A DNA stretch of 64,000 nucleotides from Candidatus Zambryskiibacteriota bacterium. Its GTDB lineage: Bacteria; Patescibacteriota; Minisyncoccia; Phycocordibacterales; WO2-35-19. Position numbers and translations under genes: made by a program. Positions 1 through 55,673 of this stretch are shown here, one piece after another (within the stretch, counting starts at the first letter, position 1; each line of letters opens with the position of its first letter). The DNA is taken from contig JASNZL010000003.1 of the NCBI GenBank assembly GCA_048499675.1, positions 16,241 through 80,240 of the forward strand, read 5' to 3'. The notes beneath the pieces were generated by a model. The model worked only from the letters and a program-made list of their open reading frames with translations. It was not told the origin of the DNA and did no database searches.

Positions 1-384
1 GCTGTTGGGTATGTTTCAACTCCAAAGAAATCATCTGATTTTAAGTGATTAACCAATCTTTCTATATAAGGTTCGCTTGTTATCGTGTTCAAATCAACTA
101 CAAATTCTCCTCCAACAATAGAACCATCTGATACAGTGAGATTACCCGATTGTAACTTGACTGTGCCCTGCTCTTTTAATCCTGTTAAGTATTCTCCTTC
201 CCAAGATACAAAACTCTCTTCTGTATTTAGGCGATAATCACCTGCTACTAAAACAGTTGTAGCTTCCTCTGTTACTACTGATTCTTCGACAGGTGCTTCT
301 GATTTTCTACCAGAAAACACAAAAAATAGAGCTATAACTATAACGATTGCGCCCGCTATTAAATAAGAATTTTTCATACTCATA
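1..384 (-). CDS. YceI-like periplasmic/membrane-anchored protein (3' end cut by window edge)
   Basis: Unlisted minus-strand ORF with start codon at 382-384. It begins MSMKNSYLIAGAIVIV (a TM/signal segment). The remainder matches the YceI pattern (SWEG.Y..G....G.V, DLNTITS, L.SDDFF.VE.YP). Confidence 0.5.
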
Positions 385-591
385 ATTTTAAAATTAATTA
401 TAATCTGCACGGATAATGATGCTTTTTATTCTACCTTAATAGAATTAAAAAATCATTTTACATATACCGCTTTTAATGTTATCATAGTTTTACTTGATTA
501 AAAATCAAGTTTATTAGACATAACGGAAGTATAACCTCAAAGTTATCTGATTGAATACCTTACGCTTTGAAAACTTTCGTTTTATTAATTT

Positions 592-1689
592 ATGTCAAAA
601 GTATTAGATAAAGAAGTAGTAGAGCACGAATCGATAATGACTAATTATGTAAACGATTCAGTTTTGCCACCTGCAAAAAATTCAATCGTAGAGGGTGAAG
701 TTGTCTCTATTGATAAGAATTCTGTTTATGTAAACCTTCCTCCTTGGGGTACGGGTATAATATTCGGTAGAGAATACATAAACGCAAGAGATCTTATCAA
801 AAAAATAAACATTGGTGATAAAATCACCGGTAAGGTTTTGGGGACAGATAATGAAGAAGGTTATATAGAAATCTCTCTAAAAGAGGCAAAACAAGCTCTT
901 ATTTGGAGTGAAGCGGAAGAAGCTATTAGGGATAAGAAGGTGTTTGAACTCGCCGTAAATGAAGCAAATAAAGGCGGATTAATGCTTTCGTGGCAAGGTT
1001 TGTCTGGATTTTTGCCAGCTTCTCAGCTTAAAACAGAACACTACCCAAGAATTGCAGATGGTGATAAAGATAAAATACTGGATGAATTAAGAAAACTTGT
1101 TGGTCAGAAATTGTCAGTCGCTATAATTGGAGTGAACGAAAAAGAAGGCAAACTAATTTTTTCAGAAAAAGATCCAGATAGCGCTGAAAAAGTAAAAATA
1201 GTAGATAAATATGTCTTGGGTGATGAATTAGTGGGAGAAGTTACAGGAATTGTTGATTTTGGAATTTTTGTGAAAATTGAAGAAGGTTTAGAAGGGCTTG
1301 TCCACATATCGGAAATAGATTGGGGTCTTGTTGATGATCCAAACAAATTTGCAAAAGTTGGAGACAAAATAAAAGTAAAAATTATAGAAATCAAAGACGG
1401 CAAAATCTCACTCTCTATAAAGGCACTCAAAGACAATCCTTGGACAGAGGCTTCCAAAAAATACAAAAAAGACGATATGGTTACAGGTGTTGTTATTAAA
1501 TTCAATAAACATGGAGCTTTAGCTTCAATAGAAGAAGGTGTTGCTGGACTCGTCCATGTTTCCGAATTTGGTTCTGAAGAGAAGCTTCACGAAAAATTGG
1601 AGCTTGGTAGGACTTATAATTTCAAAATAACCATTTTCGATCCAAAAGAACAAAAAATGGCACTTGCATTTGTGGAAGCAAACAAGTAA
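592..1689 (+). CDS. rpsA: 30S ribosomal protein S1-like protein with four S1 RNA-binding domains
   Basis: 365 aa with repeated S1 modules (GEVVSIDKNSVYVNL, GEVTGIVDFGIFVKI..GLVHISE, GVVIKFNKHGALASI..GLVHVSE). A strong intrinsic terminator follows. Confidence 0.6.
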   Translation: MSKVLDKEVVEHESIMTNYVNDSVLPPAKNSIVEGEVVSIDKNSVYVNLPPWGTGIIFGREYINARDLIKKINIGDKITGKVLGTDNEEGYIEISLKEAKQALIWSEAEEAIRDKKVFELAVNEANKGGLMLSWQGLSGFLPASQLKTEHYPRIADGDKDKILDELRKLVGQKLSVAIIGVNEKEGKLIFSEKDPDSAEKVKIVDKYVLGDELVGEVTGIVDFGIFVKIEEGLEGLVHISEIDWGLVDDPNKFAKVGDKIKVKIIEIKDGKISLSIKALKDNPWTEASKKYKKDDMVTGVVIKFNKHGALASIEEGVAGLVHVSEFGSEEKLHEKLELGRTYNFKITIFDPKEQKMALAFVEANK

Positions 1690-1741: not shown

Positions 1742-2028
1742 TGTGTGAAGCTATGGTTAATCCTCCCCGAGTAGACCCTCAAGGTACCCATCAAGGTATT
1801 CAAGTCCCTCCTCTTGAGCGGGAAGACCCTTTTCCCCATCGTCGAACCCCCGTTGGTACTCCTCACTTTTTTGCTTTTTTGGAGACTCAATCTCCATATT
1901 CTGGCCGTGCTGATTAATGGGCAAACAACACATCTCATTTCTCCTTTTCCACTAACACAATAACACAGACTTTAATATTTTAAAATGCTATAATTATCGT
2001 ATGGTTCGTGCATCCTTCTCTGAACAAA

Positions 2029-2087
2029 AGGAGAAAAATCAAAGGGTGTACTGAGTTTGGGAAAAGGGCGCACAGGAAACTGGGCGC
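2029..2087 (+). repeat. Module 1 of the tandem hairpin repeat (gggcgcacag-GAAA-ctgggcgccc)
   Basis: Direct repeat of 2180-2238. 10-bp GC helix with an A.G mismatch and a GAAA loop. Confidence 0.6.
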
Positions 2088-2179
2088 CCACATTATAATA
2101 TTAGGAATACTACGCACGGAGTGACTATTGAAACGGAAAATATTATTTGATAATCTAAATACGCATCTCTCTCCATTTC

Positions 2180-2238
2180 GGAGAAATCCAAAGGGTGCAA
2201 TTGGGATAGGGTACGGGCGCCTTGGAAACTTGGCGCCC
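2180..2238 (+). repeat. Module 2 of the tandem hairpin repeat (gggcgcc-tt-g-GAAA-c-tt-ggcgccc), followed by a T-run
   Basis: Direct repeat of 2029-2087. GC helix with a UU/UU internal loop and a GAAA loop. Confidence 0.6.
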
Positions 2239-2243
2239 GATTT

Positions 2244-2891
2244 TTAATTGTATAGATTCATTGCCTTGTCCCTCCCCTCTTTGATTAAAACTTTTACTGC
2301 CTCAGTTACTTTTTTGAATGTATTGTCGAGCGTCTCCATTTCAGACGATTTAAATCTTCCTAGTATAAAATCCAGAACTTTTTGTTCGCCTTCTGGTTTC
2401 TTAATTTTTCCTTTTGGTGTTGCGGGGCTTATTCCAATTCTAATTCTCAAAAATTCTTTGGTTTTTAAAGTCTTAACAATAGAATCAAGTCCTCTGTGTC
2501 CGCCAGTACCTTTGTTGTATGAAATTTTCATTGTTCCAATTGCCAAATCAATGTCATCATAAATTACAATCAAATTTGGGATACCACTCTTTTTCTTTGG
2601 AGAGGTTTTGGTTGATGTAGGTTTTAAAATTGGTTTTATAAAAAATAAAAGCGCTTTACCTGAGTTATTCATAAATGTCTCTGGCAAAATCGCAGTAATT
2701 TTTTCTTTATCAATACTCCCACTCGCAATCAAGGCATTAGCTTTTTTATTAAATTCCAAATCTTCAATCTCTTTTTTGGAATCAATCAGTTTCAAATCTT
2801 TTAATAGTTTAAAAACTGCCATTCTACCAGCATTATGCCTACTATTTTCGTATTCTTTACCCGTATTACCTAGTCCAACGATGTACATCAT
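2244..2891 (-). CDS. pth: Peptidyl-tRNA hydrolase
   Basis: N-terminus MYIVGLGNTGKEYENSRHNAGRMAV and downstream GTGGHRGL are the classic Pth signature. A Lys-rich insert makes it 215 aa. Confidence 0.85.
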   Translation of the reverse strand: MMYIVGLGNTGKEYENSRHNAGRMAVFKLLKDLKLIDSKKEIEDLEFNKKANALIASGSIDKEKITAILPETFMNNSGKALLFFIKPILKPTSTKTSPKKKSGIPNLIVIYDDIDLAIGTMKISYNKGTGGHRGLDSIVKTLKTKEFLRIRIGISPATPKGKIKKPEGEQKVLDFILGRFKSSEMETLDNTFKKVTEAVKVLIKEGRDKAMNLYN

Positions 2892-2992: not shown

Positions 2993-3571
2993 ATGGATGA
3001 AAATAAAAATTTAGAAAATGCAGAGAAGAAAGACTCAACTTTTGGTGAATTTTTGAGGTATGCAGTAATTGCAATGCTTGTTGTCATCCCTTTCAGAATT
3101 TATATTGCTCAACCCTATATAGTAAGCGGTTCATCAATGGATCCCACATTTAAAGATGGTGATTACCTTATAGTAGATCAACTCAGCAAAAGACTATCTT
3201 TACCTGAAAGGAATTCTGTACTTATAATCAAATATCCTTTGAACACAAAGAAATTTTTTATAAAAAGACTGATCGCTTTTCCAAATGAAAAAGTTTCTAT
3301 TGAAAATGGTGTTGTTACTGTAATAAATGATCAAAATCCAGAAGGTTTTGTAGTCGATAATAGTTATGTAACTTTTGAAAAAAAAGATAATTTTTATTTA
3401 GAATTAGGAGAAAATGAATATTTTGTTATGGGCGACAACCGATCCGGAAGCTCAGACTCAAGAATATGGGGCCCTCTTCCTAAAGAAAATATCGTCGGTA
3501 AACCAATTCTTAGATTATTACCAATAAGCAAGATCGATATCAATCCTGGGAGTATAAAAATTATTGATTAA
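2993..3571 (+). CDS. lepB: Signal peptidase I
   Basis: N-terminal TM segment, then GSSMDPTFKDGDYLIVD (Ser box) and GDNRSGSSDSR (box E). Confidence 0.85.
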   Translation: MDENKNLENAEKKDSTFGEFLRYAVIAMLVVIPFRIYIAQPYIVSGSSMDPTFKDGDYLIVDQLSKRLSLPERNSVLIIKYPLNTKKFFIKRLIAFPNEKVSIENGVVTVINDQNPEGFVVDNSYVTFEKKDNFYLELGENEYFVMGDNRSGSSDSRIWGPLPKENIVGKPILRLLPISKIDINPGSIKIID

Positions 3572-3574
3572 AAT

Positions 3575-4717
3575 ATGGAAAAAAAAATACCAGAAAACAG
3601 AAAATTAGATGAAACAAATGAAATTGGCGCGGTAGCTACTTTTTTTGGTTTTACTCCAATCAAAGCTCCTCAAATTACTAAAAAAGATTTTGACCTAACC
3701 AAAAATTATAACATTAATTTTTTGGCAAAGGAAAAATCGGCTTTAACTCATATGTATTTTGAAGAAAAAATGATGGCAAGTCCTCAGCCGGTAATGTTTT
3801 ATATTGAACATCCTTTTCCAAACTCTGGTGAGAAGAAAAAAACTGCAAAACTAGAAGCGTCTTTGGTAACTATGGGTTCTACAAAAAGCGTGTCCGAGTG
3901 TATATCAATACAAACAGCAATTACGGCACTAAACAAGCTTGGTTATAAGGATTTGGTCGTTCATTTAAATTCAATTGGTGATAAAGAGTCTATTTCAGAA
4001 TTCCAAAGGAAACTAACATTATTTGTAAAGAAAAATATGAACAGTTTCCCTAGCGATTTAAGACAACTAATTAAAAAAGATATTTACGCAATATTCAAAT
4101 ATAACAAAAAAGAGTGGGAATGTTTTGGTGTTGAATGTCCAAAATCATTAGATTTCCTTTCTGAACAGAGTAGACTTCATTTTAAAGAAGTTTTAGAGTT
4201 TTTAGAAATTATGGAAGTTCCATATATCATAAACCCTAATCTTATTGGTGATTCTAATATTGGATCAGAGACAGTTTACGAAATCAGAGAGAATAATGAG
4301 GTTCTCGCAACAGGCATGAGGTTTAATAGACTAGCAAAAAAAATAGGCTACAAAAAGGATTTGGCAAGTAACATTCTGCACATTTCGGTAAAAATTAAAA
4401 AAGCTTTAAAAAAAGTAAAAATTAAAAAACAAAAACCTCAATTTTATTTAGTCCAATTTGGCCCTGAGGCAAAACTCAAAAGCTTTTTGATTTTGAGACA
4501 ATTATACAAGGCGGGTGTAAATGTTATTCACGCCATCGCAAAAGACAAATTAGGGAGTCAAATCGGAATTGCAGAAACTTCTGGAGCGCCTTATATCATC
4601 CTGATTGGTCAAAAAGAAGCTATAGAAAATAATGTCATTATTAGAAATAACACAAATAGAGCGCAAGAAATCGTTCCTATTTCTGAGCTTTATTATAGGA
4701 TTAAGGATATAAAATAG
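3575..4717 (+). CDS. Histidyl-tRNA synthetase-like class II aaRS paralog with anticodon-binding domain; catalytic motifs divergent
   Basis: LNSIGDKESISEFQRKL aligns with the HisRS LNSIG segment. The C-terminal YIILIGQKEAIENNVIIRNNTNRAQE is the class IIa anticodon-binding fold. Motif 2 (FRYERPQ.GR) is replaced by YIEHPFPNSGEKKK, and motif 1 is absent. Confidence 0.55.
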   Translation: MEKKIPENRKLDETNEIGAVATFFGFTPIKAPQITKKDFDLTKNYNINFLAKEKSALTHMYFEEKMMASPQPVMFYIEHPFPNSGEKKKTAKLEASLVTMGSTKSVSECISIQTAITALNKLGYKDLVVHLNSIGDKESISEFQRKLTLFVKKNMNSFPSDLRQLIKKDIYAIFKYNKKEWECFGVECPKSLDFLSEQSRLHFKEVLEFLEIMEVPYIINPNLIGDSNIGSETVYEIRENNEVLATGMRFNRLAKKIGYKKDLASNILHISVKIKKALKKVKIKKQKPQFYLVQFGPEAKLKSFLILRQLYKAGVNVIHAIAKDKLGSQIGIAETSGAPYIILIGQKEAIENNVIIRNNTNRAQEIVPISELYYRIKDIK

Positions 4718-8041: not shown

Positions 8042-8311
8042 TTTTTGATTTAAGATTATAGATTCAGGATTTAAGAATCTATAAGGAAACCCACTGAAGC
8101 AATGTTCCATGGTTTGTCATCGATGACAAGAATCTTCATCTTTGCCTCATATATTCGTAGTTTTTTAAGGAACCAGATTCCGCTGGTTATGCAATTTCAA
8201 CTAAATTATAGCAAATATACACTATTTGTCAATTATTTAAAATTTCCACGACATCTTATATCCTGAATCTTTAATCATTAATCTAACTCAAAATTTGATA
8301 CAATAAGAGTA

Positions 8312-19385: not shown

Positions 19386-19425
19386 TTTAAAAGAAATCCG
19401 CGTGGGAGCCGAAGCTTCCACGCGG
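19386..19425 (-). terminator. Intrinsic terminator of a PEP-CTERM gene (part of the duplicated 131-bp block)
   Basis: ccgcgtgg-gagccgaagctt-ccacgcgg hairpin, followed on the minus strand by a T-rich run. Confidence 0.5.
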
Positions 19426-19446
19426 AATGGTTTTGCAGAGTAGCCG

Positions 19447-20091
19447 TTAGCTCCTGCGGGAGGCACGCTTGTGCCTGATGTAGCCGAGGCCAAGGAGGCC
19501 AAGGCCCATGAGGGCGACTGTGGTGGGCTCGGGGACTGATTCAGCCGTGCCCGACCAAATGGCGCCGGTCGGCCCTCCACCGAGTTGGTAAACCTCCATC
19601 ACGAGAGTGTTAGTCCCCTGCTGGAGATACGGCGTGAGAAGGAGGTTCATGAACTCTCCCGGCTCACACGCGATGGGCCCGTCGGCGCAAGCCCCATCCA
19701 TTGTAAAATTGGCCGGCTTGAGGAGCGTGCCGTTGAGCCAGACCGCCATTGTGTCATCGGCCCCGAAGGTGGCCGACCCGCTGTTGACCGCGCTCGGCAG
19801 GAAAAACTGCTGAGTGAATGTCATTGTGGCAGGCCCACTGCTCCAGTTGGGTAGGACAACACCGTTGTAGCCCGTATTTGGATACGCAGAGACCCAACTC
19901 GCCCCAGCGAGCGTATCCCAGGCCGGATGAGGGGTAATGTTGTAAACATTACCCGTGTTCGACGTCGCACTTCCGTCGCCGGAAGCAAACGTCACCGTCG
20001 CGCCAATGGCGGGCATCATACAGACCACCAGAAGCAGAATCATCATCGAAACAACTTTCATTTTATCTCCTTTTCCCCTCCGTTGATCCAA
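19447..20091 (-). CDS. PEP-CTERM domain secreted protein (GC-rich)
   Basis: C-terminus VPEPTTVALMGLGLLGLGYIRHKRASRRS. The true start is probably the internal MKVVSMMILLLVV signal peptide near 20061. Confidence 0.7.
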   Translation of the reverse strand: MDQRRGKGDKMKVVSMMILLLVVCMMPAIGATVTFASGDGSATSNTGNVYNITPHPAWDTLAGASWVSAYPNTGYNGVVLPNWSSGPATMTFTQQFFLPSAVNSGSATFGADDTMAVWLNGTLLKPANFTMDGACADGPIACEPGEFMNLLLTPYLQQGTNTLVMEVYQLGGGPTGAIWSGTAESVPEPTTVALMGLGLLGLGYIRHKRASRRS

Positions 20092-20243
20092 AAGGGAGAT
20101 TTTGTGATTTCTTATAAAACAACAAAATCTCCCCTTTGGATATATAAAAAGAACTGAGATACTTTATAACATAATGTGAAATATTATGCAAGTATACTTA
20201 TAAAAAAGCATAAATTAAATAATTGTGTTTAATCTAGTCAATT

Positions 20244-20281
20244 TAAAAGAAATCCGCGTGGGAGCCGAAGCTTCCACGCGG
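20244..20281 (-). terminator. Second copy of the same terminator hairpin
   Basis: Identical sequence to 19386-19425. Confidence 0.5.
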
Positions 20282-20302
20282 AATGGTTTTGCAGAGTAGC
20301 CG

Positions 20303-21100
20303 TTAGCTCCTGCGGGAGGCACGCTTGTGCCTGATGTAGCCGAGGCCAAGGAGGCCAAGGCCCATGAGGGCCATTGTGGCAGGTTCGGGGATCGGCTCTG
20401 TTTGCCTGAAAAGAGCAAATTGATTCCCGTTGGCGAGGGAATCAAATGTTGTATCGGGATTTTGGAGCAATAATCCAAAGTTGCCGTTCGGGCTGAACTC
20501 GGCGAATGCTCCTGGCATCGCCGAACCACCGAAGAGCAAATTGAGTGTGTTTGGCGAGTTTTGTTCAAACCAATACACACTAGTTTGATCGCTCCACGCG
20601 GCGACCTCGAGAAGCAACTGCGATGAGGTGTTGCCATTACTGAAAAGGAGTACTGAGTTGTCGGCCGACGTGCCGACGCCCCAATACTCGAGGTTCGATA
20701 CAGAAATGGCAGGACTGTACGGATTCGCACCGTAGACTCCAGTCCCTGTCATAAAATATCCAATATTCCACCCATCTCCCCCATCAAAACTGGAGTTATT
20801 CCAGTATGGAGTACCGCTCGTGTTAGGCACAACCATTGGTTGCCACGAGCCCGCGCCCACGACGGACAACGATGCTCCAGTCAACGAAAATGCTGAGTCG
20901 TTATAGTCGCGATCACCTCCAGGGAGAGGGATGTCCTCAACCCCAATCCAGATCGTTCCAGCCGAAGCCGAAACAATCAAACAAAAAAACAGAACCATCA
21001 GAAGCTTCATTTTTTTCTCCATTTCTCCTCGGTTCACTAGTGTGTGTGAGGGGAAATTTGGCCACTTGTTGAAAAATGAGCAAATTTCCCCCTCCATCAA
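20303..21100 (-). CDS. PEP-CTERM domain secreted protein (GC-rich paralog)
   Basis: C-terminus IPEPATMALMGLGLLGLGYIRHKRASRRS. The likely start is the internal MKLLMVLFFCLIVSASA signal peptide. Its 3' end is 100% identical to that of the neighbouring paralog. Confidence 0.7.
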   Translation of the reverse strand: MMEGEICSFFNKWPNFPSHTLVNRGEMEKKMKLLMVLFFCLIVSASAGTIWIGVEDIPLPGGDRDYNDSAFSLTGASLSVVGAGSWQPMVVPNTSGTPYWNNSSFDGGDGWNIGYFMTGTGVYGANPYSPAISVSNLEYWGVGTSADNSVLLFSNGNTSSQLLLEVAAWSDQTSVYWFEQNSPNTLNLLFGGSAMPGAFAEFSPNGNFGLLLQNPDTTFDSLANGNQFALFRQTEPIPEPATMALMGLGLLGLGYIRHKRASRRS

Positions 21101-23951: not shown

Positions 23952-24175
23952 AATTCGTGTCATTAGTGGGTTACTTTTTAATTTAGAATTTTTAATTTAA
24001 AACTCTATCGTTACTCGTAACTCGTACTTCGTATATCCTTTCTTATTCGTGTAATAAATTGAGTGATTAGTAGGTTTTACTTTCTAACTTGCGCCTTTAT
24101 GAACTTTTTAACTAATCCCCCTCGTATCTCGTACTTCGTAACTCGTACCTCGTTTTCAAAATTGGTGTCGCGCCC
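23952..24175 (+). repeat. 224-bp element carrying two arrays of CGTAACT-type heptamer repeats; left copy of a near-identical inverted-repeat pair
   Basis: The reverse complement of 46797-47019 matches it with only about 3 mismatches over 224 bp. Confidence 0.85.
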
Positions 24176-24360
24176 ACTTTACAAACCCTCAAAACTATTG
24201 ACAAATAACGTATAATTTGCTACAATGTTTTTATCGACATTGCCTTGTGCTTGTCGGGTCGCTCGTGCGCTCTTTCTCGGAGTCATATTGCATAGAATTG
24301 GAATTTTCCGGTTTTGCAATCCATGTCGGGAGCGAGAACTTTCTACGAAAGGAAAGAAAA

Positions 24361-46166: not shown

Positions 46167-46796
46167 ATGAATTCTATAGAAAAATTAACACAAATATTTT
46201 CGGAGTTTCCAGGGATTGGACCAAGGCAGGCCAGAAGGTTTGTCTATTATCTACTTACCCGAAACACAGGAATTTTGGAGGAACTCTCAAAAAATATTCT
46301 AGATTTAAAAAAACAAGTTGCAGTTTGCGCCGAGTGTATGAGTTTTTATGAAAAAAAGCACGATAAGAGTAATACTTGCAAAGTCTGTAGTGACCACACC
46401 AGAGAACGAGCTACAGTAATGATTGTTCAAAGAGATGTTGATATGACATCAATAGAAAAAAATGGCAATTTTAATGGAGTGTATTTTGTGTTAGGTGGCT
46501 CAGTGCCAATACTAGAGAAAGAGCCAGAAAAGAAGATTAGACTTTTGGAATTTAAGAATTTTATTTTGAATAAAAATAAAGAAGGGTTAAGTGAAGTAAT
46601 CCTCGGAATGAACTGGAATCCTGAGGGTGAGAATACAGCGCAATTTATTGAGAATTTTTTGAATAAAACATTAGAAAAAGAAATTCAATCTAAAAAAGTT
46701 AAAATCTCACATTTAGGCAAAGGTCTTTCGATGGGCACGGAGATTGAGTATATTGATCCGGATACTTTAAGAAATGCACTAAAGAATAGAAATTAG
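46167..46796 (+). CDS. recR: Recombination protein RecR
   Basis: N-terminal HhH (FPGIGPRQARRFVYYLL), a C4 zinc finger (CAEC...CKVC), and a Toprim domain. Confidence 0.9.
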   Translation: MNSIEKLTQIFSEFPGIGPRQARRFVYYLLTRNTGILEELSKNILDLKKQVAVCAECMSFYEKKHDKSNTCKVCSDHTRERATVMIVQRDVDMTSIEKNGNFNGVYFVLGGSVPILEKEPEKKIRLLEFKNFILNKNKEGLSEVILGMNWNPEGENTAQFIENFLNKTLEKEIQSKKVKISHLGKGLSMGTEIEYIDPDTLRNALKNRN

Positions 46797-47019
46797 AACG
46801 CGACACCAATTTTGAAAACGAGGTACGAGTTACGAAGTACGAGATACGAGGGGGATTAGTTAAAAAGTTCATAAAGACGCAAGTTAGAAAGTAAAACCTA
46901 CTAATCACTCAATTTATTACACGAATAAGAAAGGATATACGAAGTACGAGTTACGAGTAACGATAGAGTTTTAAATTAAAAATTCTAAATTAAAAAGTAA
47001 CCCACTAATGACACGAATT
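46797..47019 (-). repeat. Right copy of the near-identical 224-bp inverted repeat (heptamer-array element)
   Basis: The reverse complement matches 23952-24175 with about 3 mismatches. It starts at the first base after the recR stop codon. Confidence 0.85.
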
Positions 47020-47146
47020 TGAAAACGAAGTATGAGAACGAAGTACGAGGTACATCAAAATTCTAAATTAAAAATTCTAAATTATAAATTTTAATTAGGC
47101 ATGGTGATTATTAGAATAATTAGTATAATTAGAGTAATTAGAAATT

Positions 47147-48213: not shown

Positions 48214-48241
48214 TTGACACATCCCCTTTTAAATGTATACT
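48214..48241 (+). promoter_or_regulatory. Sigma70-like promoter (TTGACA-16-TATACT) reading away from rplU
   Basis: -35 at 48214-48219 and -10 at 48236-48241. Confidence 0.4.
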
Positions 48242-48247
48242 CAAAAT

Positions 48248-48595
48248 AGGAATCAGCTCGTTGAGTTCAAGAGATTTGAGAAGGATATCCCGTGTTTTAC
48301 GCGGAATCAGGTATTTTTCTCAAATGAACAGCAGGTTAGGATTTAGTCCTGACAAATGCCCCGTACCCGGGCCGTCTTGAATTGTTCCAGTACAATTCTT
48401 GAATGAAGCTCGCCTCAAAAGCGAGAAAACCACCAAAATACTGGGTCTTGACCACCCTCTCCAAGGTTGGGTGGTGGGGTACAGCAGTCTTGCCCGAGCT
48501 TGTCTTTCTGTCAGGTCTTGACCACCTTCTCAAAGGTTGGGACGGAATAACCGTCTTGAATGAAAGTTCAGGCGGTTTTTTGTTTAGTTTATTTT
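48248..48595 (+). ncRNA. Candidate about 340-nt GC-rich structured RNA of unknown class, containing a twice-repeated gtcttgaccacc.tct..aaggttggg module
   Basis: Promoter upstream and a T6 run at 48587-48592. GC-rich in an AT-rich genome. Antisense-oriented to both flanking genes. The only ORF is a spurious 65-aa one. Five copies of the gtcttg motif. Confidence 0.35.
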
Positions 48596-51492: not shown

Positions 51493-51590
51493 ATTAGAAT
51501 AATTAGTTAATTAGAAATGAGATTAATTCACTTTACAAACTTTCTTGCTCACCTATTCGTTATGATTCGTGTAAATTAGTTTGATTAATA

Positions 51591-51690
51591 GGTTTTACTT
51601 TCTAACTTGCGCCTTTATGAACTTTTTAACTAATCCCCTTCGTACCTCGTACTTCGTAACTCGTACCTCGTTTTACAAATTCGTGTCCCG
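51591..51690 (+). repeat. Third, partial (about 100 bp, about 95% identity) copy of the heptamer-array element, in the same orientation as the 23952 copy
   Basis: ggttttactttctaacttgcgcctttatgaactttttaactaatcccc.tcgta.ctcgtacttcgtaactcgtacctcgtttt aligns to 24076-24160. Confidence 0.65.
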
Positions 51691-51691
51691 T

Positions 51692-52456
51692 CTACTTTTC
51701 ACTTCCTATTATATCAAACTCGCCGACTTTTGTTCTTTTGATTGAAAGGACTACCGCACCCACTCCTAGAGTGTTGCCCATATCGTTTACCAAGCTCCTT
51801 ATATACGTCCCACTTGATACTTTTGCTCTCCATCTGGCAAGCAAAATAGGGTGATTATACGAATCAAGAAGTTTTTTCCATAGAACCAAAATTTCGTGCT
51901 GTCTAAAATCACCTTTGACTTTTGAAATATCCATAAGTAGACGACCAAAAAATTCTTTTGAAGATAGGGGAGTGAGTCCTTCAAATTTTAGATCATAAAT
52001 TTCTATATCATTTGTCGGTAAATCATCTTCATCCAATACACCTTGCCTTGCTAGCTCGTGAAGTTGTTTTTTGTTGCCTCCTTTTGAAATAGTTTTAGAA
52101 GAATAAAATGGATACTTCTGTTCCCTTTTGCCTTTGTAAATTTCTGCGAGTTTTATTAGTTCTAATTCGTTTATATTCTCTACTTTTTCTACTCTTACAA
52201 TCTTTCCCATAACATCAAATGTATCAGTAGCAAATCCAAATACAGAAATAAACTCATACTCCTTGTCCAAATTCAAAAACTCCTCTTTTCTGTGCACATC
52301 CTCGCCACTTGCTACCAAAAGAACCCCTTCGGCCAAAGGATCAAGCCGTCCGAGGTATGTAAATTTTTCATTTTTAAGCTCTATGTGCGCGTCTCTGTAT
52401 CTCTGAATACATTCAAGCGGTGTTTCGCCTCTATTTTTATATAAATTTAGAATCAT
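51692..52456 (-). CDS. truB: tRNA pseudouridine synthase, TruB-like
   Basis: YLGRLDPLAEGVLLVASGE (the catalytic Asp motif of the TruB family). 254 aa without a PUA extension. Confidence 0.6.
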   Translation of the reverse strand: MILNLYKNRGETPLECIQRYRDAHIELKNEKFTYLGRLDPLAEGVLLVASGEDVHRKEEFLNLDKEYEFISVFGFATDTFDVMGKIVRVEKVENINELELIKLAEIYKGKREQKYPFYSSKTISKGGNKKQLHELARQGVLDEDDLPTNDIEIYDLKFEGLTPLSSKEFFGRLLMDISKVKGDFRQHEILVLWKKLLDSYNHPILLARWRAKVSSGTYIRSLVNDMGNTLGVGAVVLSIKRTKVGEFDIIGSEK

Positions 52457-52516
52457 CTTATTTTAAGGCATATTTTACTACACACTCCCACAGAAAGCAA
52501 AAACTCTACAAACCAC

Positions 52517-52544
52517 TTGACAATTTCTCTAAATTTGCTATAAT
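52517..52544 (+). promoter_or_regulatory. Consensus sigma70 promoter TTGACA-16 nt-TATAAT
   Basis: -35 at 52517-52522 and -10 at 52539-52544, both perfect hexamers. The TSS is predicted near 52552. Confidence 0.5.
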
Positions 52545-52551
52545 TAGTACA

Positions 52552-52886
52552 GATATACTGGAGGGAAATATTGTCTGGCTATTTACCCTTGCGGTATTTC
52601 TCTGGCCCAAAAGCCAGTGTGTGTTCCAGACCGGATGGAGAGATGTTCCTTGGATCTCTTATGCATCCGCAATCACAGGGATAGGCTACTTAAACGCAAA
52701 CCCGGTAATTAGGTAGCCGAAAACGACCGGTAAGGCGAACCCCCGTAGGGATAAGAACCTGCGCAGAAAACGCCGACATGTCCCCACACTTCCGGCTTAT
52801 GTGGGATAAGACATTTGAAAGCCGTCGGGCCCGCTTCGTCTTCACTCGTATTGAGTTGAGATGAGAAAAGCGGGCCCTTTCGTTTG
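52552..52886 (+). ncRNA. Candidate about 335-nt GC-rich structured RNA gene bracketed by a consensus promoter and an intrinsic terminator. Identity unresolved; weak RNase P RNA-like features, not established
   Basis: No credible ORF. GC-rich. Hairpins ctggc-ccaaaag-gccag and ggctac...gtagcc. An ACACUUCCGGCUUAU segment resembles the RNase P P4 3' strand and could pair with the upstream AGACCGGA. The terminator is gggcccgctt...aagcgggccc plus tttcgttt at 52827-52886. Confidence 0.45.
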
Positions 52887-53051
52887 TATAATTATTTCCC
52901 TGTCTTTCTTCTACTTCCCGCAAACCTTTCCCCATTAGTAAGATTCGCGAACATTAGTAATTAGTGGGTTATCTATTTCGAGACCCCGTAAAAAGTTGCG
53001 TTCGAAATCCAACTTAACGAGTCCTAAGGAAAATATATTCATTTACATTTA

Positions 53052-55673
53052 TTATTTTCCTAAGACCTTCTTCAAATATTTACCTGTATAAGAATTTTTA
53101 TTGTTTGCAACTTCCTCCGGTGTTCCTTTTGCAACAATTTTTCCTCCGCCCACTCCTCCTTCAGGACCAATATCAATAATATAGTCGGAAGATTTTATGA
53201 TATCCATATTATGCTCAATTACTAAGACAGTATTTCCTTTGTCCACCAGTTTTTGCAAAATACCGATCAATCTTTTTACATCATCATAATGAAGTCCTAT
53301 TGTTGGTTCATCTAAAATGTAAATGGTTTTTTGAATATGAGGTCTGTATAGTTCACTTGAGATTTTTACCCTTTGCGCTTCACCTCCAGAGAGTGTTGTT
53401 GCAGATTGTCCGAGTTCCAAGTATCCCAAACCTACATCATTGAGTGTTTTTATTCTGTCGTGAATTGCAGGAATATCTTCAAAAAATGTAAGTGCTTCTT
53501 CTACGGTCATTTTGAGTATTTCGTATATATTTTTCTTTTTGAATTTGACTTCAAGAGTTTCTTTCATAAATCTCTTGCCACCACACACATCACAAGGGAC
53601 ATAAACCGTTGGTAAAAAGTGCATCTCTACAGCAATCATTCCATTACCTTCACATGTCTCACATCTACCTCCAGCTCGGTTGAACGAAAATCGTCCGGGT
53701 CCCCACCCTCTCACTCTAGCTTCACTTGTTTCTGCAAACATATCTCTAATATGTGTCCAAGCACCGGTGTAAGTTGCCGGATTTGACCTTGGTGTTCTAC
53801 CTATAGGTGATTGGTCTATTAGAATACTTCGTCCTAAATATTCACTACCTTTGAAAGATGCACAGCTGAATGTTTCGTTACTCCTATATTTTCTTTCAAA
53901 TCTTGCTTGCAAATTTTTGTATAAAATTTCATAAACAAGCGAAGATTTTCCGCTTCCGGAAACTCCCGTCACACAGACGAGACGGCCGAGCGGAATATCC
54001 ACATCCATATTTTTTATGTTGAATATATTTCCATTTCTTATTTGGATTTTGCCTTTGTCTTGATCCCGCCTTTCATCTGGTATTTCAATATAATCCTCTC
54101 CACGCAAATATGAAAGCGTTCTTGAATTAGAATCATTTTTCTTTGCAGTTAACAAATCATCTAAATATCCACTTACTACAATTTCCCCCCCGTGTACTCC
54201 AGCACCCGGACCAATATCTACAATATAATCGGAAGCAAAAATCGTATCTTCGTCGTGTTCTACAATCAAAATAGTATTTCCCAGATCTCTAAGCTCAAGC
54301 AGTGTTTTAATCAATCTATCATTATCTCGCGAATGGAGACCTATTGTTGGCTCATCTAAAACATAAAGAGCGCCGACAAGACCACTTCCTAGTTGGCTTG
54401 CCAAACGAATTCTTTGAGCCTCGCCACCCGAGAGAGTATGTGCCCTTCTGTTTAACGAAAGATACTCAATACCCACGTTTAACATAAATCGTAATCGTGA
54501 TTCTATTTCTCTAATTACCACTTTTGAAATATTCTTTTCTCTTTCAGTTAGTTTTGTATTATCTAAAAACTCAAAGGCGTCCTGTATAGACATATTTACA
54601 AAATCAACAATATTTTTACCTCCAACAAGAACATGTAGCGCCTCCGGTCTCAACCTTGCACCATTACAAACTGGACAAACTTCGTCTCCAAAGAAGTGTT
54701 TTGTACCGAGCCCATTACATTCAGGACAAGCGCCATAAGGTGAGTTAAAAGAAAATAATCTTGGTTCAATTTCAGGATAAGAATACCCATCCTTAGGACA
54801 AGCAAACTTATTTGAAATTATGGCTCTATCACTTTGGTTATCCTTATTGTCTTTGGATTTTTTGACATCTTGGTTCAAGTCCCTAAATGAAAATTCCAAA
54901 AGTCCTTCTGCCTCATCTAGCGCTTTTTCTAAAGATTCACTCAACCTTTCCTCGGCATCTTTTTTATTTTCTACAAAATCTTTTATATTAATAGAATCAA
55001 CTTAGAAGTATGCTAATATCGTGCCTTTTATTTTTTGATAGCTCTATTCTTTCTCTTAAACTCTGTCTTTTGTTGTCTATGATTAGCACTATATCCTTTG
55101 CCAAACATATCGTAGAGAGAAGTTGGTAATATTCCCCTTTTCTACACACTCTCACAACCAGCGCAAACAATTCTAGATATACCGGAAAATCAGGTACACA
55201 CTATTTTTACGACCGTAAGAATAGTGTAATTTCTAGGATTAGGTTTTTTTATTTCATTATTTGATAGTTTTGAATTTCATCTCCACAAAGCCAAGCAATG
55301 AGGTCTAAAACCAATTCTGGGAATATATAAAACACGTAGGTAAGTCATATATTTCTGTAATAGTTGCCACTGTCGAGCGTGGATTGTTTGAGCGGGATTT
55401 TTTGATCGATTATTGCGGGAGAAGGCCAATCTCGTCCACATCTGGCTTCTGCATCTGTCTCAAGAATTGGCGGGCATAAGACGAGAGTGATTCTATGTAT
55501 CGTCTTTGTCCTTCTGCAAAAATAGTATCAAACGCCAAAGAAGACTTGCCACTTCCGGAAAGTCCTGTAAAAGCTATCATTTTGTTGCGAGGCATCTCTA
55601 CGGTAATATTCTTCAGGTTGTGAGTCCTAGCCCCTCTCACTATTAATAAATCTTCTTTGCTTTCTTTTTTCAT
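53052..55673 (-). pseudogene. uvrA: Excinuclease ABC subunit A, disrupted: intact N-terminal 87 codons and C-terminal about 630 codons, separated by about 460 bp carrying an in-frame TAA and at least three frameshifts
   Basis: 55410-55673 encodes the UvrA N-terminus with Walker [10 protein letters not shown]. Three frames of 55005-55410 read SIKKSRSNNPRSTVATITEIYD / YLRVLYIPRIGFRPHC / ...IVLIIDNKRQSLRERIELS. These align with UvrA residues about 90-250 but are interrupted. 53052-55000 encodes an intact zinc finger, signature II and ATPase II. Confidence 0.75.

Follow-up and report, generated by a model that had tools for sequence, protein, structure and literature searches.

What is encoded by the GC-rich stretch of about 335 nt that separates truB from uvrA in this CPR genome? 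An initial annotation had read it as a likely housekeeping RNA, with an architecture typical of RNase P RNA, tmRNA, SRP RNA or 6S RNA. The question bears on a poorly charted field, as CPR bacteria possess tiny genomes and few known regulators, and there is almost no knowledge of their non-coding RNAs. We analysed the locus within a stretch of 64,000 nucleotides (64 kb), hereafter called the window, and compared it with related loci. The relatives found carry the labels Zambryskibacteria, Paceibacterota and Patescibacteria, which bears out the CPR origin proposed earlier.

Anatomy of the promoter-to-terminator unit

The features of the intergenic region are compiled in Table 1. As previously claimed, the stretch is preceded by a perfect sigma-70 promoter, which matches the consensus hexamers at 12 of 12 positions and additionally carries an extended -10 element. 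Perfect TTGACA-N16-18-TATAAT sites occur only twice in the window, as compared to 0.05 sites expected from shuffled sequences. The other site is located at 8205-8232 (minus strand) and is followed, down to ~8080, by a 22-codon ORF (MKILVIDDKPWNIASVGFLIDS, then a stop), which resembles the N-terminus of a response-regulator receiver domain and is probably a gene fragment. Transcription of the RNA unit presumably starts at ~52551. From there to position 52886 the GC content is 50% as compared to 36% for the window, a value reached or exceeded in just 2.7% of 336-nt windows. The description of this stretch as ORF-free also holds, since the overlapping ORFs are all mechanical and none is credible: they comprise 98 aa (plus strand, with a start upstream of the promoter), 81 aa (minus strand) and 37 aa (TTG start). 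Pfam searches with nine stop-free frames of the unit returned zero matches, and the 81-aa ORF had no relative among 5.8 billion proteins.

Structure prediction yielded an MFE of -125.4 kcal/mol for the unit, with z = -4.67 for the plus strand versus -2.91 for the minus strand. For the RNA body without the terminator the values are -2.76 and -1.15, respectively, and twelve coding segments used as folding controls range from -1.1 to +1.1. Both MFE and centroid structures correspond to a multi-hairpin, multibranch fold, and three of the individual hairpins (52562-52603, 52632-52669 and 52684-52718) reach z ~ -3 each, in keeping with the multiple stable hairpins reported before. The first of them sequesters a GGAGG, while the predicted hairpin at 52774-52817 has the octamer CCGGCUUA in its loop. 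As the window's version of the RNA, termed allele A, has no homolog (see below), the proposed structure is a thermodynamic prediction (body z = -2.76).

The annotated 10-bp GC stem with T-run was likewise recovered: an inverted-repeat search found the arms GGGCCCGCTT (52827-52836) and AAGCGGGCCC (52868-52877) to be 100% complementary, and the complete hairpin, at -32.9 kcal/mol and z = -6.35, is directly followed by UUUCGUUUG. A simple terminator scanner overlooked this element because the segment between the arms exceeds 8 nt. Taken together, promoter, GC island, plus-strand folding and terminator argue for a bona fide promoter-to-terminator unit on the plus strand, which is probably a discrete non-coding transcription unit for a structured RNA. 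Transcription of the unit would follow from these signals. The unit is also not simply the 3' UTR of uvrA, which had been named as the alternative that would refute the assignment.

Table 1. Features of the uvrA-truB intergenic region (window coordinates)
Feature	Position	Strand	Remarks
truB promoter, back-to-back	52472..52500	-	TTGCTT-17-TAAAAT; left edge of the slot, conserved backbone
Sigma-70 promoter	52517..52544	+	-35 TTGACA at 52517-52522; 16-nt spacer with terminal TG; -10 TATAAT at 52539-52544
RNA body, allele A	52551..52826	+	GC 0.50; at least six predicted hairpins, including 52562-52603, 52632-52669, 52684-52718 and 52774-52817
Intrinsic terminator	52827..52886	+	51-nt hairpin (10-bp GC-rich outer stem plus inner stem), then UUUCGUUUG
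AT-rich tail of the strain-variable segment	52887..52982		includes GATTCGCGAACATTAGTAATTAGTGGGTT, a partial copy of a dispersed intergenic repeat
Hairpin at the uvrA 3' end	52983..53035	-	probable uvrA terminator; right edge of the slot; L041 similarity restarts here

Cargo replacement between truB and uvrA

The unit is flanked by truB (51692-52456) and uvrA (from 53052), both on the minus strand, and resides in a neighbourhood of core genes encoding UvrB, UvrA, TruB, malic enzyme, YqeY, RmuC, L21, RecR and DnaB. Genes for RT, Cas, TnpB/IscB, integrase or toxin proteins are absent within ~10 kb, and no transposase gene is nearby. The uvrA gene itself (53052-55672) is broken into three frame segments in the window, i.e. 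55655-55344, 55290-55003 in another frame, and 55001-53061. The middle segment shares only 45% identity with UvrA of L002, and L040 and L041 possess an unbroken gene; the split reflects either a pseudogene with frameshifts or a fault of the assembly.

In two more distant relatives, L002 (TruB 84% identical) and L020 (59%), the uvrA-truB order and the back-to-back promoters are retained with conserved hexamers, and the transcribed segment encodes unrelated RNAs of ~150 and ~220 nt, respectively. In L004 and L008, uvrA directly abuts truB. The comparison of close strains covered the TruB variants falling into one 90%-identity cluster (n = 7), two of which carry allele A. Outside the window, allele A was found in one other assembly only, which derives from an independent sample (L036, SRR33243635) and contains it in the same context with no mismatch over 52534-53000. 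This identity was considered as a sign of selection or constraint and rejected as such: mismatches between the window and L036 are distributed as a mosaic (0-27 differences in 150 nt, other ~450-nt stretches also being free of mismatches), and therefore the identity is uninformative on constraint.

In the remaining five variants (L037, L040, L041, L042 and L043), allele A is replaced or absent. In L041, whose flanks are 95.2% identical to the window, the same promoter precedes a GC-rich RNA of ~190 nt that is unrelated to allele A and has a terminator of its own; the two sequences cease to be similar at ~52555, and similarity restarts at 52983. L040 and L037 share 119 nt with 100% identity through GGAGGCAACG and diverge from each other beyond this point. 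The same 119 nt are found throughout L037-L039, whose contigs break before the end of the cargo, and the cargo of L040 is a ~100-nt RNA. L043 carries a protein-coding gene instead, namely an ORFan for a 189-aa helical-repeat protein (240-809, minus strand) with an SD sequence and a terminator after it. Here, the promoter is degenerate (-35 TTGACT, no clear -10 at consensus spacing). The protein has no Pfam assignment and no homolog, its PADLOC and PHROG matches are sub-threshold only, and tblastn against all alleles gave no match. At ~165-190 of L043, past the cargo gene, a 22-nt duplicate of the truB start resembles an insertion scar. L042, finally, has a uvrA-truB gap of 106 nt that is devoid of the promoter.

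Thus, at least seven states of the slot are seen among few genomes, i.e. the empty state and six different cargoes: one ORFan protein gene, four RNAs of complete length and a further RNA of which only the first ~50 nt are known. Pairwise blastn of the alleles revealed that their common parts are restricted to the promoter side and the uvrA side. The hexamers of the plus-strand promoter are constant and its spacer is variable in L002, L020, L036, L037, L040 and L041, and by sequence inspection the truB promoter is conserved in all alleles that retain the slot. A short leader, which contains GGAGG in several alleles, is kept together with this promoter pair. Wherever the end of an occupied allele is known, it consists of a canonical stem with U-tract whose orientation agrees with that of the promoter, and the hairpin at the uvrA end, weakly folding in the window, appears better formed in L036 and L041 upon inspection. 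Predicted folding of the other RNA alleles is weak (z from -0.7 to -1.8). The locus hence displays what characterizes accessory ncRNA genes in intergenic hotspots: own promoter and terminator, no supported ORF, and presence/absence or allelic replacement among conspecific strains between conserved flanks.

Dispersed repeats accompany the slot. An AT-rich intergenic repeat of ~150 nt is present in the window at 51554-51701, 24034-24183 and 46790-46937 (copies 86-87% identical), with fragments at 47010-47053 and 52943-52975, and the uvrA-truB gap of L040, L041, L042 and L043 is likewise filled by copies. The motif GATTCGCGAACATTAGTAATTAGTGGGTT of the tail occurs in inverted orientation in L041. 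Contigs break at the slot because of these repeats, which coincide with the breaks; the Logan contig of the same organism (L001) stops at 52894. The repeats may aid recombination.

Further searches for relatives of allele A covered several collections. Neither nhmmer and blastn against 34 syntenic loci nor blastn against GenBank phages and PLSDB plasmids identified a homolog, and no match was obtained when six back-translated anchors distributed along the RNA were scanned in IMG/VR and JGI metagenome contigs. A second metagenome scan, which used the conserved 5' part of truB as anchor, likewise gave no match, in a collection that does not contain these organisms. Two single-sequence covariance models (52617-52720 and 52719-52830) detected only themselves in 365 kb comprising the window and the loci, and the window holds no second copy of the unit. 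Other genomes may nevertheless contain relatives of some cargo RNAs at neighbouring sites, as suggested by a 33-nt stretch of the L002 cargo (3766-3915, minus strand) that is 91% identical to L003 positions 3540-3572, located ~430 nt upstream of truB.

Candidate explanations for the RNA

The explanation that we prefer, and to which we give an even chance, is that the unit represents a strain-specific accessory gene, which encodes a structured non-coding RNA of ~335 nt and resides in an expression slot between uvrA and truB of Paceibacteria-type CPR bacteria. The backbone of the slot would consist of the back-to-back promoters, one serving truB and the consensus extended -10 promoter pointing toward uvrA, the short leader and the uvrA-end hairpin. 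The cargo between these conserved edges would be exchanged among strains, the likeliest route being homologous recombination in the conserved flanks following DNA uptake, aided by the dispersed intergenic repeats, and each cargo would bring along its own intrinsic terminator. The allele A RNA would be transcribed constitutively at a high level, fold into a series of stable hairpins and end at the terminator at 52827-52886. It would be dispensable for core physiology and most likely act in trans, through base-pairing or protein binding, in some strain-specific role.

As to whether the RNA is a functional accessory ncRNA, the arguments are about evenly balanced. The consensus promoter that is kept across alleles and the strong, correctly oriented terminator speak for function, and the GC island in an AT-rich genome, together with the strand-specific excess of predicted folding and the long perfect stems, would point in the same direction. 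Counting against function, or neutral, are the lack of a homolog, the uninformative identity of L036, the GC-rich foreign genes and the promoter-driven gene fragment. In particular, GC richness could simply mark foreign DNA, as genes for PEP-CTERM-motif proteins with 60-67% GC are also present in the window. One could go further and suppose that the gap is a dedicated, integrase-free expression slot, in which the 335-nt RNA functions as one of a pool of strain-specific cargoes for conflicts with phages, hosts or competitors. We consider this extension improbable; if true, the slot would be an RNA-centred counterpart of defence and immunity hotspots. A CsrB-like sponge was rejected, GGA and CCGG motifs showing no enrichment above chance.

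The main rival, rather unlikely in our judgement, holds that allele A is a transcribed but functionless remnant, that is horizontally acquired GC-richer DNA which decayed or became truncated between promoter and terminator. Accordingly, the slot would be an expression platform, made up of promoter and SD leader, for small accessory genes. This is consistent with the GGAGG that allele A, at ~10-15 nt past the transcription start, has in common with the protein-coding L043 and with L040 and L037, and with the fact that allele A lacks any relative in the searches made and is dispensable in conspecific strains. Other GC-rich foreign genes exist in the window, and since the second consensus promoter drives only the 22-codon response-regulator-like fragment, strong promoters can persist before dead cargo. 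However, no frame of the unit gives a protein-family signal, the excess of folding is specific for the plus strand (z = -2.76 versus -1.15) and involves several independent long perfect stems, and a strong terminator is retained in the proper orientation. Moreover, neutral DNA in an AT-rich genome should drift to AT.

Less probable still, the RNA could belong to a mobile or conflict system, either as its RNA component or as a solo remnant, for instance in the form of a guide, decoy or antitoxin RNA; the protein partner would then be encoded elsewhere in the genome or by a phage. Presence/absence and allele replacement between strains are reminiscent of defence and anti-defence hotspots, the cargoes are orphans, and dispersed repeats flank them. 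Yet the ~10 kb around the unit contain no gene for an RT, Cas, TnpB/IscB, integrase or toxin protein, the unit is single-copy in the window, and IMG/VR, GenBank phages and plasmids provided no match. Allele A also lacks terminal inverted repeats and a convincing target duplication, and the L043 cargo protein has sub-threshold PADLOC/PHROG matches only. A MITE, IS element or integron was rejected: there is no convincing TIR or TSD, no integrase or transposase gene nearby, a single copy in the window and no copy in the phage, plasmid, viral or metagenome collections.

We regard it as very unlikely that the transcript is an mRNA for the 37-aa peptide with a long structured 3' UTR. The putative TTG start at 52571 is preceded at 6 nt by an SD-like GGAGGG, in L040 an AGGAGG lies 5 nt ahead of the ATG of a 14-codon ORF, and the equivalent SD serves a real gene in L043. 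Against this, SD and start codon of allele A are enclosed in the 13-bp hairpin 52562-52603, the peptide matches no family, the identity of L036 offers no substitution pattern, and this reading does not account for ~200 nt of GC-rich 3' UTR.

The housekeeping assignment fared worst. A highly divergent RNA of this kind, i.e. a minimal RNase P RNA or a tmRNA, SRP or 6S RNA, has a barely noticeable probability. With Rfam 15 at gathering threshold, only two tRNAs were reported for the 64 kb window, and at E<=10 the region 52400-53050 gave nothing meaningful beyond noise, matches below ~20-25 bits not being listed; neither setting produced a match of the unit to the RNase P models RF00010 and RF00011. 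Similarly, searches of 27 related loci at gathering threshold gave no known family for the RNA, the L002 and L020 alleles gave only noise at E<=10, and ARAGORN detected no tmRNA in the window. CPR RNase P RNAs may score below default Rfam thresholds (Lui et al., PMC8172020), and for this reason the negative Rfam result is insufficient by itself, the more so as very weak scores were not listed here.

We therefore turn to the motifs. The initial annotation had pointed to two segments that could form a P4-like helix, and both are indeed present: CCGGCTTA at 52792-52799 and AGACCGGA at 52628-52635, corresponding in the RNA to CCGGCUUA, which could pair with AG(A)CCGGA leaving a one-base bulge. In RNase P RNA, P4 is formed by the near-universal CR-I (GGAAAGUCC), with a bulged U, and by CR-V (ACAGAAnCCGGCUUA). 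The octamer is all that the unit contains of CR-V, with ACACUU where ACAGAA is expected; CR-I is matched with three mismatches in nine positions at best, confirming that the canonical motifs are missing; and the bulge would be an A rather than the universal U. The P4 reading fails in addition because the proposed 5' strand is tied up locally in a stable hairpin (-15.6 kcal/mol, z = -2.8), and just ~155 nt separate the two would-be strands. For the hairpin with CCGGCUUA as part of the loop, predicted folding is no stronger than for shuffled sequences (z = -0.73). With conserved nucleotides missing and a local hairpin in competition, a P4 pseudoknot was rejected.

The other classes were dismissed on similar grounds. 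A tmRNA, which would have a tRNA-like domain (5' GGGG, T-arm GGUUCGAnUCC and 3' ACCA) and a tag reading frame, is not supported, given the lack of an ARAGORN prediction, of an RF00023 match and of the T-arm and 3' end motifs. Nor is an SRP RNA, given the lack of an Rfam match and 10 mismatches in 22 positions for the best match to the domain IV motif, a GGAA tetraloop hairpin whose AGCAGC side is conserved. The 335-nt multibranch fold differs from the 150-200 nt rod with large central bubble that typifies 6S RNA, and RF00013 gave no match either. A tmRNA- or tRNA-like gene with an inserted island was rejected as well, the T-arm-like minihelix at 52983-53024 being the uvrA-end hairpin, which is common to all alleles and decayed in the window.

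The most decisive evidence comes from the strain comparison. Since the cargo is unrelated or absent in strains with ~95% identical flanks, it does not correspond to an essential single-copy RNA; the RNA is dispensable and therefore not a housekeeping RNA. Conservation as expected of RNase P RNA is not observed, allele A being present in 2/7 TruB variants of the 90%-identity cluster, and the more distant L002 and L020 have unrelated, shorter RNAs at the locus. Allele A resembles type A RNase P RNA (RF00010), the reduced forms of CPR bacteria included (PMC8172020), in its size class, its own promoter and terminator, its GC-richness within an AT-rich genome and the octamer CCGGCUUA, but differs in lacking the CR-I nucleotides, the bulged U of P4, the ACAGAA of CR-V, a model match and conservation among conspecific strains.

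Known systems and other features of the window

For enterobacteria, horizontal switching of intergenic regions has been described, including regions with strain-specific sRNA genes. By analogy, such replacement between core genes is the closest known phenomenon to the uvrA-truB slot. In both cases, conserved core genes flank intergenic content that is unrelated in close strains, and the strain-specific sRNA genes of enterobacteria likewise have their own promoter and Rho-independent terminator and are dispensable. The slot differs in that promoter and leader are constant and exchange is confined to the transcribed cargo, in the unusual length (335 nt) and GC-richness of this cargo, and in the seven or more states found among few genomes. 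Integron cassette arrays provide a functional analogy: downstream of the fixed Pc promoter, they too contain exchangeable cargo, some of it without an ORF. In contrast to integrons, no intI integrase, attI or attC was found here, and the slot accommodates a single cargo with a terminator of its own. Screens for GC-rich intergenic regions in AT-rich genomes find structured ncRNAs, with conservation and covariation between genomes as the basis on which their classes are defined. Allele A shares with them the position as a GC island in a long intergenic region and the above-random folding, but differs in having no detectable relative.

Thus, an RNA gene can look like a textbook case, with consensus promoter, GC island and strong terminator, and yet be cargo of particular strains and not the missing housekeeping RNA, which has consequences for the annotation of CPR genomes and for completeness checks relying on RNase P RNA. 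Should the cargo RNAs be functional, the slot would offer a natural and compact means of exchanging RNA genes behind a fixed promoter.

Several other features of the window were noted in passing. A block of 60-67% GC (genome 36%) at 19400-21100 contains the two genes for PEP-CTERM-motif proteins, adjoins a GIY-YIG fragment and a tRNA-Val, and was likely acquired horizontally. At ~1975-2250 (plus strand), two tandem paralogous hairpin RNAs of ~110 nt each follow a TATAAT and end in GGGCGC..GGAAAC..GCGCCC, with a U-run after the second; the body has z = -2.7, and Rfam returned terminator-like noise only.

A second GC-rich promoter-to-terminator RNA of ~335 nt is located at 48214-48592 (plus strand), with the promoter TTGACA-17-TATACT, in divergent orientation to rplU and convergent with rmuC. 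It contains two tandem hairpin modules (ACCACCyUC..AAGrUwGGGUGGUGGGGUAC). The RNA has no Rfam match at E<=10 and is missing from the same gap in L002, L003, L004, L005 and L009, and a syntenic homolog with 73-79% identity is present in the distant relative L020 (7520-7812, minus strand). In the two-sequence alignment, double compensatory changes affect 17 of 72 predicted pairs, which makes this RNA, whose class is unknown, a strong candidate for a conserved structured RNA and a better new-class candidate than the RNA between truB and uvrA.
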